Origin: Escherichia phage Shy
Direction: 5' to 3' (one strand)
DNA: 42,805 bases
Sequence record: OR996328
Part shown: one piece after another, positions 1 to 38,529 of the stretch
Layout of the letters: each line of letters starts with the position of its first letter
How positions within the stretch are numbered: the stretch's first letter is position 1
The notes under the pieces: generated by a model
Database searches by the model: none
What the model was told of the DNA's origin: nothing
The model's input: the letters and a program-made list of their open reading frames with translations, nothing else
Position numbers and translations under genes: made by a program

Positions 1-471
1 ATGGAAGACACGAAATCGAAGGCCGCTTATGCGGCTTTTCTTTTACAGGAACGCGACCCGTTCAAGGCCGCTTGCCTGCTATGCCCGGACAACACGGGCC
101 AAGCCCTATGGTATGCAACCAATTGGGCGAACGACGAAGACGTTATCGCAGAAATGAACCGGCTTCGGTCGGACGCGAAGAACGTTCAAGCCATCGCGTC
201 GAAATTCGACCTTGCCCGCTTCTATTGGGATTTGGCGAATAACGAAAAAATCGACCCTAAAGACCGAATCGCCGCCGCTGAAAAGTACGGCGCGGTTGCC
301 GGTATCTACGACCCCAAAGCGAATACGACAACGAATATCAACGTTGACGCGGCCCCGCGTGTCATGGTCGTTAAAGACCACGGCACTAACGACGAATGGG
401 CGCAGAAGGTCGCAAAGCAACAGCGCGAATTGGTGAACGGTCGATATGTCGCTAATACTACCAAACACTAA
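1..471 (+). CDS. putative terminase small subunit
   Basis: 156-aa ORF beginning at window base 1. It lies directly upstream of the large terminase gene and overlaps it by 26 nt. The call is positional; no diagnostic motif was read. An AAGG Shine-Dalgarno at 42793-42796 would sit 9 nt upstream if the window ends are joined. Confidence 0.5.
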   Translation: MEDTKSKAAYAAFLLQERDPFKAACLLCPDNTGQALWYATNWANDEDVIAEMNRLRSDAKNVQAIASKFDLARFYWDLANNEKIDPKDRIAAAEKYGAVAGIYDPKANTTTNINVDAAPRVMVVKDHGTNDEWAQKVAKQQRELVNGRYVANTTKH

Positions 472-29453: not shown

Positions 29454-30263
29454 TTAGCGCGGTTGGCCCCAAGCCGGTTGGCCGCCGCCGTTGCCTTGGT
29501 TCTGGTTCCAGCCGCCGCCGTTGCCTTGCTGCTGGCCTTGGTTGCCCTGCTGGTTGCCTTGCCAGCCGCCGCCCTGCTGGTTGCCCTGCTGGCCGTTGTT
29601 GCCGTTGTTCTGGCCCCAACCCGGATTACCGCCGCCGTTGTTCTGGCCTTGGTTCTGGTTGTTGCCGCCGTTGTTATCCGGCATCGGAACGTTGTTCGCG
29701 ACCTGCGATTGACCGCCCCAACCGGCGTTGTTACCGCCGTTGTTTTGCTGCTGGTTCTGGCCGCCGTTCTGTTGCTGGTTGCCCCACGAACCGCCGTTGT
29801 TACCGGCTTGGCCGCCGTTGTTCTGCGCGGCTTGACCGTTGCCGTTGGCGTGGCCGGGTTCGTTACCGTTGATATCGAACACGCGTTTTACGTCGGTGTA
29901 CTTGTTCGGGTTCGGTTCTTTCTGCAACCCGACTTCGACCATAAACGGGATGTTGTGCAACTGTTGCGAATCTTGCACTTGGAACACGCCGGTAACGTGG
30001 CACAAAGCCGACAACTGTTTGTGCGCGATTTCGACGGTTTGCGGGTTGGTATGGTACAGGTTCAGGCGGTAAGCGCCGACCGCGCCTTTGTTCGGGCCGT
30101 CGATAACCTGCAAGTCGAATTGCAGATAACCGGAATCGTTATCCTTGGTCGGCTTTACTTCCGACTTGATAGCGATAACCGGATGCTTGCCGATAGGCAA
30201 ACCGCCGACGCCTTGGGTCGGGTCTACGTTACGCGCGTCGAACGCTTGCATCAATTGAGCCAT
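29454..30263 (-). CDS. ssDNA-binding-like protein (DUF669-type position) with ~140-aa G/N/Q/W-rich disordered tail
   Basis: Start moved to the ATG at 30263 (SD AAGGTAG). The ~125-aa N-terminal folded part lies next to the Sak4-like ATPase, as in many phage recombination modules. The tail resembles the bacterial SSB linker (GGWGQ...) but ends ...QPAWGQPR with no acidic tip. Confidence 0.6.
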   Translation of the reverse strand: MAQLMQAFDARNVDPTQGVGGLPIGKHPVIAIKSEVKPTKDNDSGYLQFDLQVIDGPNKGAVGAYRLNLYHTNPQTVEIAHKQLSALCHVTGVFQVQDSQQLHNIPFMVEVGLQKEPNPNKYTDVKRVFDINGNEPGHANGNGQAAQNNGGQAGNNGGSWGNQQQNGGQNQQQNNGGNNAGWGGQSQVANNVPMPDNNGGNNQNQGQNNGGGNPGWGQNNGNNGQQGNQQGGGWQGNQQGNQGQQQGNGGGWNQNQGNGGGQPAWGQPR

Positions 30264-30319
30264 TTTGTTTCTACCTTTTCGAAAAGTTCCGACAATCAAA
30301 CCGTGTCGAATTCGGTTAT

Positions 30320-32381: not shown

Positions 32382-32585
32382 ATGACCCAGCTTGTCACCG
32401 GTTGGCGGGATGAAACCCGGCAACTTCTGTTGAACCGCCCCCGCAACCTTGAATATCAGACCATCGCCAACGAAACCGGTTTGTCTGTTTCGTGGATTCG
32501 TGCGTTCGCGGTAGGCCAGTCGGATAACCCCGGCGTCGTCTTCGTCGAAACCCTTTATGTATATCTGAAAGCAAAGGCCAAGTAA
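32382..32585 (+). CDS. small helix-turn-helix DNA-binding protein
   Basis: Start moved to the ATG at 32382, because the SD AAGGA at 32367-32371 is 10 nt upstream. YQTIANETGLSVSWIRAFAVGQ looks like an HTH. It is TAATG-coupled to the primase gene. Confidence 0.55.
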   Translation: MTQLVTGWRDETRQLLLNRPRNLEYQTIANETGLSVSWIRAFAVGQSDNPGVVFVETLYVYLKAKAK

Positions 32586-34891
32586 TGTACCAGAACATAC
32601 CCGAAGAATTGCGGAATACGCCGCATTGGGTAGTTTGGCGTTACGAAGACACGCAAGCCGATAAGCCGACCAAAGTACCGTATTCGCCGCATAATTTCCA
32701 AACGCGGGCGAATGTCAACGAACCGTCAACTTTCGGAACGTTTGAGCAAGCCGCGCAAGCGTGCCAAGACGGATGGTTTAACGGCTTGGGCTTCGTGTTA
32801 ACGCAAAACGACCCGTATTGCTTTATCGACCTTGACGATACGGACGGCGACCCGAAATTGTACGCCGACCAAATCACGATTTACCAACGGCTAGGGTCGT
32901 ATACCGAACTTTCGCCAAGCGGTAAGGGCGTGCATATCATCGTAAAAGGTGCGTTGCCAGCCGGTCGCAAGCGTAACCGTATTGAACTGTATTCGTCCGG
33001 TCGCTTTATGACCATGACGGGTAATTTCCTTAACGGTTCGAACCCGGCTATCGAAGACCGTAACGATATGGTCAACGAACTTTATACCCTGTTGGGCGGT
33101 AAAGAAGAAAAGACATATTACGACGGCAACGAACCACAAACCAAGTCGGACGACGAAGTTATCGAAATCGCACGCAATGCGGAAAACGGCGCGAAGTTTA
33201 TGTCGTTGCATAACGGCGATTGGGTCGGCCTGTATCCGTCGCAATCCGAAGCCGACTTAGCGTATATCAACATTTTGGCGTTTTATACCCAAAACCGCGA
33301 ACAGCTTACCCGGATGTTCAAAGCGTCGCCGTTGGGCGCACGCGACAAACAAACGTCGATTCGTGGCGTCGGTTATATCGACTACATGATTAACAAGTCT
33401 TTCGACCGCATGTTGCCGCCAGTCGATACCGCCGCACTTATGAACCGGCTTAACGAAGCATTGCAACAAAGCCGCGTCGCAGTGCAACAGGAAGCCGCCA
33501 GCGTGCCGACCGCCGAATATATCCCCGAACCCCAAGGCGATACGCCGTACACCGTGCCGCCCGGCCTTATGGGCGAAATCGCGCAATTCATTTACCAGCA
33601 AGCGCCCCGGCCCGTACCGGAAATCGCGCTTACGGCCGCTATTGGCTTGATGGCTGGTATATGTGGGCGTGCGTACAACGTGTCGAATACCGGATTGAAC
33701 CAATACGTTATGTTGTTGGCCCCAACCGGCACCGGTAAAGAAGCAATCGCAAAGGGCATTGAAAAGCTAATGGGACAAGTGCAACGCACCGTGCCAGCGG
33801 CTAACGAATTCATCGGCCCGGCTGAAATCGCATCGGCGCAAGCGTTGGTTAAATATATGTCGAAAGGCCCGACCAGCTTTGTAAGCATCGTCGGCGAAAT
33901 CGGTATCGCATTGCAGCAAATGACCGACCCCCGCGCACCGACGCACCTTGTCGGCTTGCGCCGCCTGTTGCTTGACCTGTTCAACAAGTCCGGCGAAGGT
34001 TCGGTTTTGCGTCCGACCATCTATTCGGATAAAGAAAAGAATACGGCTTCGGTTCTGGCACCGTCTTACACGATGCTAGGCGAATCGACGCCCGAACGCT
34101 TTTACGAATTCCTTGATGAAATGATGATTAGCGAAGGTTTGTTGCCGCGCTTTACCATCATCGAATACCGGGGAAAGCGGCCGTCTATGAACGAAGGCCA
34201 CGCGTTCGTAATGCCGTCGAATGAACTGGTCGAACGTATGGCGCAATTGTGCGCGCAAGCGTTGATGCTGAACAACTCGCATAAAGCGGTGCATATCCGC
34301 GTATCGCCGGAAGCGAAAGAACTGTTCGACGCTTTCAACGAAGAATGCGACAAGCGAATTAACAACGCATCCCGCGAAGTCACGCGCCACCTTTGGAACC
34401 GTGCCCACATTAAGGCCATGAAACTAGCCGGGCTGGTTGCCGTCGGTTGTGACCCGTATAACCCGACCATTGATGCCAGCGCCGCCGCTTGGGCCTTGCG
34501 TATCGTTGAAGCGGATTCGAACAACCTGTTAGGTCGGTTCAATAGCGGCGAAGTCGGCCAGAACAGCAACGAAACCAAACAGCTTAACGAAATGGTACGC
34601 GTGATTCGCGAATACGTCGTTCGGCCTTGGTCGGAAGTGGCGTCGTATGGCGGGTCGGCAATGATGCACGGCGAACGCATTATTCCGTATCCGTACCTTC
34701 AACGTAAATTGGCTAACCTATCCGCTTTCAAAGGCGAACGAATCACGGCATCCGACGTTATCCGACGCACCTTGAAGACGCTTTGCGACCGTGGCGACAT
34801 TGCGGAATTGGGTAAAGGTCAATTGATTGATAAGTTCGGATTCCGTGGCGTTGCGTACATGATTTCGGCACCACGGGCGTTCGGCTTCTAG
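32585..34891 (+). CDS. bifunctional primase-polymerase (AEP) / helicase
   Basis: 768 aa. AEP motifs read: CFIDLDD and SPSGKGVHI. SQSEADLAYINILAFYT is a PriCT-type helix bundle. The C-terminal half has Walker A LLAPTGTGKE (DUF3987/D5-like helicase). Confidence 0.8.
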   Translation: MYQNIPEELRNTPHWVVWRYEDTQADKPTKVPYSPHNFQTRANVNEPSTFGTFEQAAQACQDGWFNGLGFVLTQNDPYCFIDLDDTDGDPKLYADQITIYQRLGSYTELSPSGKGVHIIVKGALPAGRKRNRIELYSSGRFMTMTGNFLNGSNPAIEDRNDMVNELYTLLGGKEEKTYYDGNEPQTKSDDEVIEIARNAENGAKFMSLHNGDWVGLYPSQSEADLAYINILAFYTQNREQLTRMFKASPLGARDKQTSIRGVGYIDYMINKSFDRMLPPVDTAALMNRLNEALQQSRVAVQQEAASVPTAEYIPEPQGDTPYTVPPGLMGEIAQFIYQQAPRPVPEIALTAAIGLMAGICGRAYNVSNTGLNQYVMLLAPTGTGKEAIAKGIEKLMGQVQRTVPAANEFIGPAEIASAQALVKYMSKGPTSFVSIVGEIGIALQQMTDPRAPTHLVGLRRLLLDLFNKSGEGSVLRPTIYSDKEKNTASVLAPSYTMLGESTPERFYEFLDEMMISEGLLPRFTIIEYRGKRPSMNEGHAFVMPSNELVERMAQLCAQALMLNNSHKAVHIRVSPEAKELFDAFNEECDKRINNASREVTRHLWNRAHIKAMKLAGLVAVGCDPYNPTIDASAAAWALRIVEADSNNLLGRFNSGEVGQNSNETKQLNEMVRVIREYVVRPWSEVASYGGSAMMHGERIIPYPYLQRKLANLSAFKGERITASDVIRRTLKTLCDRGDIAELGKGQLIDKFGFRGVAYMISAPRAFGF
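34402..34409 (-). repeat. TGTGGGCA motif copy (minus strand)
   Basis: Minus-strand context ttaaTGTGGGCAcg, inside the primase CDS. Confidence 0.9.
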
Positions 34892-34911
34892 CTAACCTAT
34901 CCGACGAATCA

Positions 34912-35152
34912 GTATAAGGGGGCTAAGGCCGCGTATAAGCCCTAACCCCCTGATTTCATTGATGTTATAAGGGTATAAGGGTTATAAGGCGATAAACCTT
35001 CACTTCCCCTTCTATCCCCCAAACCGTCGGATTGGTTATCGGATTCCATACATTCACTAAAATAGGTACTATCCTTATACTCTTTATACTTTTTATATCT
35101 TCAATAAATACAAGGACTTAGGGCTAATCGGAACCCTTAAATTCGTATAAGG
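34912..35152. repeat. iteron cluster (GTATAAGG) plus AT-rich tract; candidate replication origin
   Basis: Exact GTATAAGG occurs at 34912, 34973 and 35145, and inverted at 35073-35080. 7/8 copies lie at 34933, 34965, 34982 and 35082 (inverted). Three copies abut at 34964-34989. 35051-35115 is roughly 75 percent A+T by eye. Confidence 0.6.
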
Positions 35153-35273
35153 CTGGGGCCAAGGGGCAAACGACGAACCGATTTGCTATCCGATGAAAAA
35201 TCCGGTTGACAGTCCGACGGAATGCGGCGATACTGTCGCAACAGTCGCCGGATACAGCGAAGGAGTTATCGAA

Positions 35274-35474
35274 ATGGCGAAGAAAGCGAAACAGTATTTC
35301 AGCTTGTTGACCAAGACCGACGGCGTTTGGTCGGTTCAGTTTGGCGACTACGACCGCGAATGCGTCGAACAGGAACGCGACGATTCGTATTCCGACGAAA
35401 AGTGCCGCATCATCAAGACCGACGACACGCAAGCCGCTATCGACGCCGCTGTCGCCAAACTTAACGCGGTCTAA
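35274..35474 (+). CDS. hypothetical protein (66 aa)
   Basis: Start moved to the ATG at 35274 behind the SD GAAGGAG. The sequence MAKKAKQYFSLLTKTDGVWSVQFGDYDRECV... gives no functional call. Confidence 0.5.
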   Translation: MAKKAKQYFSLLTKTDGVWSVQFGDYDRECVEQERDDSYSDEKCRIIKTDDTQAAIDAAVAKLNAV

Positions 35475-38309: not shown

Positions 38310-38529
38310 CTGTTTGCGATGCGAACTCATAAGGGCCAAGGCGAAAGCTACGGCCCTTTTGGCGTTGAAATGGACGCCGCAAGAAATCGCCGCGAAGCTG
38401 TCGGCCGACTATGGCGAAAGCTATTACGTCGGAATTGAAGCGAACGGCGAATGTTGGTGCAAGGGCATATTTCGGGCGTCCAAGCTGTCGCCTTATACGC
38501 CGCATCTTATTAAGGAGTTGACGAAATGA
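38302..38529 (+). CDS. hypothetical protein (75 aa)
   Basis: Start moved to the ATG at 38302, which overlaps the upstream stop (ATGATTAA). The track extension upstream lies inside the previous gene. Confidence 0.5.
   Translation: MINCLRCELIRAKAKATALLALKWTPQEIAAKLSADYGESYYVGIEANGECWCKGIFRASKLSPYTPHLIKELTK

Follow-up and report, generated by a model that had tools for sequence, protein, structure and literature searches.

What is the function of the longest non-coding stretch in the genome of Escherichia phage Shy, and which proteins act on it? The window analysed here, a stretch of 42,805 nt, is the near-complete genome of a Halfdan-type siphovirus (genus Lokivirus in GenBank), with 98.9% identity to Escherichia phage Halfdan (MH362766) by blastn over the region tested. 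Structural genes occupy 1–22.6 kb on the plus strand and replication genes 22.7–32.2 kb on the minus strand. From 32.4 kb, the plus strand carries a small HTH gene, a primase-helicase gene, the non-coding gap, ∼25 small genes and the lysis genes, before the circular map returns to the small terminase gene terS (phrog_5334; 1..471, +). The primase-helicase gene (32585..34891, +) encodes 768 aa with an N-terminal prim-pol domain of the NrS-1/SaPI5 type, a DUF3987 helicase core and a C-terminal winged helix. A reading of the letters alone, made earlier without database searches (hereafter the sequence-only reading), had noted ∼380 nt of non-coding DNA after the primase stop at 34891. This gap indeed runs for 382 nt (34892-35273) up to the next ATG at 35274, which has GAAGGAG ahead of it, and it is by far the longest non-coding stretch of a tightly packed genome. 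The product of terS, which lies 7.9 kb downstream on the circular map, is an alternative candidate for binding the repeats described below.

The host range of this phage type is itself unusual. Halfdan was isolated on E. coli MG1655 and the near-identical Juelich variant (PP954860) on Pseudomonas taiwanensis, a cross-order host record for phages that GenBank places in Lokivirus, an Acinetobacter-phage genus.

Repeats and an AT-rich tract cluster in the gap

The octamer GTATAAGG occurs four times exactly in the gap, at 34912, 34973 and 35145 on the plus strand and at 35073 on the minus strand. Four further copies match at 7/8 positions, at 34933 (GTATAAGC), 34965 and 34982 (TTATAAGG) and 35082 (reverse complement GTATAAAG), and three units abut head-to-tail at 34964-34989; for all of these, the coordinates given by the sequence-only reading hold. 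Its claim that the cluster exceeds chance is also borne out, since the expectation for the full 42.8 kb is 0.62 exact copies. Five are present in the window (at least five were reached in 1 of 100 shuffles), and four exact plus four near copies in 240 nt is far above chance. Shorter forms of the word show the same concentration: 7 of the 13 copies of TATAAG in the window lie within the gap, as do 6 of the 8 copies of TATAAGG, a count of 8 that none of 100 shuffles reached. The one exact octamer outside the gap (38491-38498, −) is inside a small gene, has no neighbouring copies and is probably a chance occurrence.

The most AT-rich 65 nt of the genome are also found here, as had been claimed (35049-35113; 78% A+T, compared with 69% for the next best tract anywhere), and the tract as first delimited, 35051-35115, has 75% A+T. 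The description of the genome around it as GC-rich needs tempering, because whole-genome G+C is 53.7% and the genome is only mildly GC-rich. The placement of the tract between the direct and the inverted copies was mistaken: the tract is the inverted-iteron array itself, with three tandem inverted copies (35073, 35082 and 35091). What separates the direct and inverted arms is a C-rich tract (35006-35024), along with repeats of a second family (TCGGAT/ATCCGA).

The gap is an ordered module with two mirrored arms

From left to right, the module (34892-35273) consists of iterons, an IHF-like site, tandem iterons, a C-rich tract, operator-like repeats, three inverted iterons, a conserved block, one iteron and a sigma-70-like promoter. 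Block A (34912..34940, +) holds two direct iterons, GTATAAGG at 34912-34919 and GTATAAGC at 34933-34940, and all relatives have 2-3 iterons at this position. Block B (34943..34955, −), TAACCCCCTGATT, agrees at 12/13 positions with the IHF consensus YAANNNNTTGATW (reverse complement of WATCAANNNNTTR). The consensus is exact in many relatives read by eye, for example as CTAAGTCATTGAT. The putative IHF site of this phage is a degenerate one: the exact pattern occurs four times in the window and not at all in the gap, where the sites match at 12/13 and 11/13. Block C (34964..34989, +) is the head-to-tail set GTTATAAGG GTATAAGG GTTATAAGG, a tandem arrangement kept in relatives.

The centre of the module is formed by blocks D and E. 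Block D (35006..35024, +) is the C-rich tract CCCCTTCTATCCCCCAAAC, which is G-rich on the same strand in some relatives. Block E (35025..35047, +), CGTCGGATTGGTTATCGGATTCC, contains TCGGAT twice and is genus-specific, its counterparts being TTGATTAAAAG in Septimatrevirus, TTAACnGTTAA in Langgrundblatt, CGTCGTA in locus L072 and TACTATT in L089. This motif differs between genera, yet it always returns around the downstream promoter. In Shy, the TATCCGA/TCGGAT family is found at 34897-34908, 35025-35047 and 35186-35220, so that copies stand beside the inferred packaging cut (described below), where block E begins exactly, and on both sides of the −35 box. Repeats of the block E type may serve as TerS sites or as operators for the small HTH protein. 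With regard to block D, the strand of the G-runs flips between lineages; the tract has two C-runs on the top strand in Shy, and four or more G-runs in some relatives (L083, L091 and L105; e.g. GGGGTGGGTAGGGTAGGGG in L083), where G-quadruplexes could form.

In the right arm, block F (35072..35099, −) comprises three tandem 9-nt inverted units, TCCTTATAC TCTTTATAC TTTTTATATC, which make up the core of the AT-richest tract and are the best conserved part of the module. Block G (35101..35142, +), TCAATAAATACAAGGACTTAGGGCTAATCGGAACCCTTAAAT, repeats block B and its flanks in inverted and diverged form, and it is IHF-like in relatives. The two arms form an inverted repeat in which 34924-34970 pairs with 35093-35139 (47 nt, 70% complementary). 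Block G is 79% identical to the corresponding element of Xanthomonas phage DoCa8, and its YCAAKGRCTTAG is retained even where iterons differ. An outer iteron, GTATAAGG (35145..35152, +), follows; it is present in all relatives as the lineage's own iteron word. The module ends in a rightward sigma-70-like promoter (35186..35234, +) made of TTGACA (35206), a 17-nt spacer and GATACT (ending at 35234), which scored 10/12 in a promoter scan. The promoter is flanked by block-E-type repeats (CTATCCGATGAA, AATCCGG and TCCGACGG), and in relatives the TTGACA box with lineage-specific flanking repeats is kept. No DnaA box was found in the module, even at one mismatch. We read the module as a roughly dyad-symmetric non-coding site that would nucleate a protein–DNA complex.

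A 29-aa CDS is annotated at 35032-35121 in PP954860. It is probably spurious, and the region aligns with indels between relatives.

The module is conserved downstream of related primase-helicase genes

Access to the relatives came from a weak blastn match to an unannotated gap of DoCa8, and blastn with the DoCa8 module region returned a homologous non-coding region in 78 phage records. Examples that were read or aligned include phage 73, PaMx42, Kopi, DLP_2, Ab26, DoCa1, KL1, Langgrundblatt2, Pfeifenkraut, Pavpe01 and XAJ2, together with closer uncultured relatives of Halfdan. The module lies downstream of the primase-helicase gene in Septimatrevirus, KL1, Pavpe01, Langgrundblatt-type and RcTitan-type phages, in many metagenomic contigs and in small integrase-bearing islands. 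An nhmmer profile built from 12 aligned examples detected it in 26/80 IMG/VR loci encoding a related primase-helicase, always on the same (+) strand and 0-3 kb downstream of that gene; more divergent versions were recognisable by eye beyond the profile matches. An exact-pattern scan of IMG/VR with a block G pattern that fitted DoCa8 only gave no matches. The layout is constant, with 2-3 iterons in A, 2-3 tandem iterons in C, 2-3 motif copies in E and three 9-10-nt inverted iterons in F, followed after the YCAAKGRCTTAG element of G by one or two iterons and then by the E motif around a TTGACA promoter. The module of Septimatreviruses has a rho-independent terminator ahead of it and a promoter behind it.

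A comparable arrangement is found further afield in Vibrio phage GH32 (Queuovirinae), in which direct AGGGAAA repeats, an AT-rich stretch and inverted repeats directly follow the primase gene. A search with TerS gave no named matches from Queuovirinae. Among all inspected records with a TerS homologue (e.g. XAJ2), each carries both the primase and the module, which left a phyletic comparison (TerS without primase, or the reverse) uninformative within the clade. JenK1 (Nonagvirus) has a different non-coding region of 843 nt and was left out as not comparable. In the GH32 record (MW451249), the iteron region appears twice in tandem at 100-470, with N between the copies; the record is UNVERIFIED and circular with a 35-nt end overlap, and the duplication is probably an assembly artefact.

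The interval between the primase stop and the module varies in content. Nothing lies between the two in Halfdan-type phages, 0.5-1.2 kb of variable cargo genes do in Septimatreviruses (L002-L010), among them genes for a C-5 cytosine methyltransferase (Kopi) and a putative peptidyl-tRNA hydrolase (phage 73), and XAJ2 has 2.8 kb of opposite-strand genes. Judged by these records, the interval is an insertion hotspot.

The iteron word is not the same in all lineages. GTATAAGG is used here and in Pavpe01, and GTATAAY in Septimatrevirus. Other words are GTAAAAY in the RcTitan-like L064 and in L089, TCTAAY in L091 and L093, GTTTAAT in L105, TTCTTAC in L090, TAGGATA in L109, GTATATT in L083 and GTATTAG in L080. 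In L023, the word is GTATAGGG (TATAGG), with at least eight sites changed. Thus, the word shifts in concert across all blocks, lineage by lineage, which points to a phage-encoded specific binder.

The same observation bears on the alternative that the sequence-only reading had offered, namely that the repeats serve the rightward genes as clustered promoter or operator elements of the −10 type; a gene for a non-coding RNA may be considered alongside it. TATAAG does resemble TATAAT, and the scan of this strand of the gap gave two consensus matches, the true sigma-70-like promoter at 35206-35234 and a weaker match at 35053-35081. However, TATAAG does not end in the T that is invariant in −10 hexamers, the iterons stand in both orientations, and the sole iteron with a −35 partner is that weak 9/12 match at 35053-35081, whose −10 overlaps the 35073 copy. 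A set of −10 elements is excluded by the concerted change, in which other lineages use TCTAAY, TAAAAY, TTCTTAC or TAGGATA in all blocks together, and in Septimatrevirus the whole module sits between a terminator and a promoter. A structured RNA was rejected: there was no Rfam match at gathering score and no tRNA or tmRNA anywhere in the window, and the folding z was −0.64. We regard this group of explanations as barely plausible.

Islands in bacterial chromosomes carry the same module

Bacterial chromosomes harbour islands that combine an integrase, a DUF3987 helicase with the C-terminal domain (CTD) and this module, each using an iteron word of its own, as in Stenotrophobium rhamnosiphilum and Anianabacter salinae. 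Such loci (L123, L124, L126, L128 and L129) are in bacterial contigs of 119 kb-2 Mb. The one subjected to a Pfam scan (L124:7327-14400, S. rhamnosiphilum NZ_QANS01000002) is an island of ∼7 kb with host genes on its flanks. It encodes a tyrosine integrase, a DUF3987 helicase that has the CTD and no prim-pol domain, the iteron module, two weakly TerS-like ORFs and an HNH gene. The matches of ORFs just after island modules to TerS are weak (pairwise E 0.003; phrog_5334 E 0.004). The islands look like phage satellites parasitising this phage clade.

Related genomes have a probable packaging end at the module centre

Six related GenBank records begin at a point homologous to 35025|35026, the junction between blocks D and E. 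The breaks in Pavpe01 and Langgrundblatt2 are at profile positions 158-160, equivalent to 35025|35026 of the window, Langgrundblatt1 starts at the same base, and vB_PaeS_22043_B8_1 (Germany), GEC_K2 (Georgia) and P8749 also start there. These records come from at least four laboratories and three lineages and agree within 1-2 nt. In the four that were read for spacing (Pavpe01, Langgrundblatt2, B8_1 and GEC_K2), the break coincides in every case with the right-hand boundary of the G/C tract. It is 46-50 nt from the first inverted iteron of block F, whereas the interval to block C ranges from 17 to 40 nt. No terminal repeat is present in the B8_1 and GEC_K2 records.

Published data on these phages indicate headful packaging. 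The PhageTerm class 'Headful (pac)' was reported in two source studies (PMC11256456, PMC9316219), and according to the Pavpe01 paper the terminase gene was set as genome start only when a terminus was not found. For Loki, headful packaging was shown experimentally by BAL-31 and restriction analysis, in which no sub-molar pac fragment was seen (PMC5313236). RcTitan is circularly permuted (PMC8601537), and IME-AB3 was described as having 'no obvious termini', falling just under the terminus threshold. The records of the Halfdan_Juelich_variant and of Pfeifenkraut, the latter also classed as 'Headful (pac)', start outside the module. The PhageTerm result 'circularly permuted' for UF_RH1 and UF_RH5 was set aside, as it came from Nextera libraries, which are uninformative on termini. 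Ends of metagenomic and Logan contigs often fall in or near the module; they are scattered, may be assembly breaks and were not used as evidence.

We infer that the record starts are terminase cuts and that Shy behaves like its relatives, with a predicted pac end at 35025..35026 (+) and packaging directed rightward. From the ends mapped in relatives, it is likely that the centre of the module is the packaging start. Proximity to terS would be expected of a pac site; here terS is 7.9 kb off. As for the candidate origin proposed by the sequence-only reading, the repeats, the AT-rich tract and the adjacency to the primase gene stand, and virion ends at the centre of the region were not foreseen.

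One could instead take the site as an origin only, with record starts that reflect origin ends or nicks (e.g. the end of a rolling-circle tail) or annotation conventions. The architecture, the adjacent primase-helicase gene, its winged-helix CTD and the covariation of CTD and iterons (below) would all suit an origin, as would the missing pac fragment of Loki and the lack of obvious termini in IME-AB3. Against this stand the agreement within 1-2 nt among independent laboratories and three lineages, the fact that virion DNA was sequenced and the PhageTerm pac class for two of the phages. An origin without a packaging function is therefore very unlikely.

The C-terminal domain of the primase-helicase is a candidate iteron reader

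Which protein reads the iterons? The CTD of the primase-helicase (approximately residues 700-768, nt ∼34680-34888) is confidently predicted to be a winged helix, and this domain is a candidate iteron binder. The AlphaFold full-length model is poor in the helicase core (pLDDT <50 for residues 403-529), and the N- and C-terminal domains alone were used. The best PDB sequence match of the N-terminal prim-pol domain is 7OLA (E 9.5e-29), a 797-aa 'DNA primase' that is presumably SaPI5 Pri-Rep.

In the pairs compared, divergence in the final 110 residues far outpaces that of the helicase core precisely in those cases where iterons differ. L091 and L105, which have different iterons, are 92% identical in the core and 59% in the CTD, and for the island helicase of L123 and that of phage 73, again with different iterons, the values are 69% and 30%. 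Phage 73 and L089 share 80% of the core and 59% of the CTD. In contrast, phage 73 and KL1, which have an iteron core in common, are 89% identical in the core and 85% in the CTD. L089 is informative because its TerS and TerL are 63% and 84% identical to those of phage 73 and its iterons are RcTitan-like; in agreement, its CTD has a 13-residue stretch, EMSRAVMSKEYGS, in common with RcTitan. This case speaks, if weakly, against TerS as the reader of the iterons. When iteron classes were compared, neither the CTD nor the TerS HTH yielded a clean rule for residues that might determine specificity. The covariation could also be mere physical linkage, since the CTD-coding end is near the module here and in the compared pairs (up to 3 kb away in some relatives). 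Taking the CTD data together, we lean slightly towards the iterons belonging to the primase-helicase rather than to TerS.

A more serious competitor holds that the module is a pac site only. The iterons would then be TerS sites on both sides of the cut and IHF would bend the DNA, much as at P1 pac or lambda cosB; replication would start elsewhere and the position beside the primase gene would be conserved synteny alone. The shared start of six records, the near-constant spacing from the cut to block F beside a variable one to block C, and the headful packaging of the family fit this explanation, as do the repeats that flank the cut on both sides in the manner of a terminase recognition site, the IHF-like sites in both arms and the TerS-like ORFs after the island modules. 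A distance of 7.9 kb from terS is unusual for pac, however, and TerS of Shy is just 35-45% identical to that of relatives with the same GTATAA core. L089 combines TerS and TerL of the phage 73 type with iterons of the RcTitan type, and GH32, from a group without a detectable TerS homologue, keeps the layout of iterons, AT-rich stretch and inverted iterons. Finally, it is the CTD of the primase-helicase that is hypervariable in step with the iterons. On balance, a site for packaging alone is possible, if somewhat unlikely.

A combined origin and packaging start is the preferred explanation

Our preferred reading is that the module is a combined replication origin and packaging start, to which we assign a probability of about 0.45. 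Under this ori-pac reading, the winged-helix CTD of the primase-helicase would bind the direct iterons of blocks A and C, the inverted iterons in the AT-rich block F and the copy at 35145, probably with help from IHF, which would bend the DNA at blocks B and G. The primase-helicase would then load itself, melt the AT-rich F arm and prime DNA synthesis, steps that we propose by analogy with SaPI Rep and P4 alpha at their iteron origins. That CTD divergence tracks iteron change supports the origin part. Terminase would make its first headful cut at 35025|35026, where the C-rich tract ends on its right side, ∼47 bp to the left of block F, and packaging would proceed rightward from there; this packaging start is supported in relatives and extrapolated to Shy. 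The TCGGAT-type repeats beside the cut and around TTGACA may link the site to rightward transcription, either as operators or as terminase sites. Both the origin activity and the assignment of proteins to repeats are predictions from comparative data.

A stronger version is that origin and packaging start are one nucleoprotein site, in which the primase-helicase/IHF complex would define the DNA end or recruit terminase. We consider this distinctly doubtful. If it were so, the first headful would be filled from that end, initiation of replication and of packaging would be mechanistically coupled in the clade, and satellites could exploit a cassette reduced to the module plus genes for the helicase-CTD and a TerS-like protein.

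Comparison with known origins and packaging sites

A literature search found no account of the module, nor of an origin or pac site in these genera. One close parallel is with staphylococcal pathogenicity islands (SaPIbov1, SaPI5), in which iteron sets and AT-rich DNA lie directly 3′ of the gene for a self-loading helicase; in addition, the pair of gene and module recurs here in small integrase-bearing islands. Ubeda and colleagues are said to have placed SaPI origin specificity in the C-terminal part of Rep in 2007. Unlike the SaPI origins, the present site belongs to a virulent Gram-negative siphophage and is a larger, dyad-symmetric module known from sequence alone, with IHF-like sites, a central C-rich tract, operator-like repeats and, in relatives, virion ends inside it. 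In phage P4, the alpha protein joins primase, helicase and a C-terminal winged helix in one polypeptide and uses the octamer iteron TGTTCACC in direct and inverted orientation. The domain combination and the direct and inverted octamers are thus alike, whereas the primase fold of alpha differs, P4 needs two separated sites (ori and crr) and its cos ends are elsewhere. Iteron plasmid origins (pSC101, R6K gamma and P1 oriR) combine an IHF site with direct iterons, tandem AT-rich repeats and a promoter overlapped by inverted repeats. The Shy module likewise has direct iterons, an IHF-like site, AT-rich tandem repeats and inverted repeats, but it is without a DnaA box, and its putative initiator is a primase-helicase and not a Rep protein that switches between dimer and monomer.

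Similar parallels exist on the packaging side. The pac site of P1 has repeat clusters on both sides of a central cleavage region, IHF or HU stimulates cleavage, and the cut starts the headful series. The two sites are alike in having clusters of short repeats to the left and right of the cut, but those of P1 are Dam-methylatable hexamers within pacA, the small terminase gene, whereas the present site is 7.9 kb from terS and adjoins the primase gene. At lambda cos (cosN-cosB: R3-I1-R2-R1), the first small-terminase site is ∼50 bp away from the cut, and an IHF bend is placed between inverted sites. Here, the cut is 46-50 nt from block F, followed by the IHF-like block G and then by an oppositely oriented iteron. 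Lambda ends, in contrast, are cohesive and not permuted, cosB is directly upstream of Nu1, and there is no mirrored left arm.

Elements of both kinds, iteron origins and pac sites, are known, and what is new is their combination here: a dyad-symmetric module with IHF-like sites in both arms and a probable packaging end inside, 7.9 kb from terS and common to satellite-like islands. Septimatrevirus, Lokivirus and their relatives are commonly isolated for therapeutic use against Pseudomonas, Stenotrophomonas, Acinetobacter and Xanthomonas, and the module supplies a candidate origin and a candidate pac site at base-pair resolution. The pac site and the direction of packaging bear on the risk of generalised transduction, on genome engineering and on rebooting, and the natural variants of iteron and CTD specificity make protein–DNA recognition directly testable. 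A shared ori-pac hub that is also found in satellite-like islands would, if true, be an unusual coupling of replication and packaging.

Other features of the genome

Cumulative GC skew reaches its minimum at ∼33.5-36.6 kb, an interval that includes the module. Gene orientation accounts for this equally well, and skew was dropped as evidence for an origin because the effects of replication and transcription are not separable. The sole other local word cluster of the genome is in the SSB/DUF669-like gene (29454-30299, −), where CAACGGC occurs 10 times in 400 nt. In-frame tandem repeats with periods of 9, 12 and 21 and a strong AT skew extend over 29520-29744 and probably encode a low-complexity protein linker.
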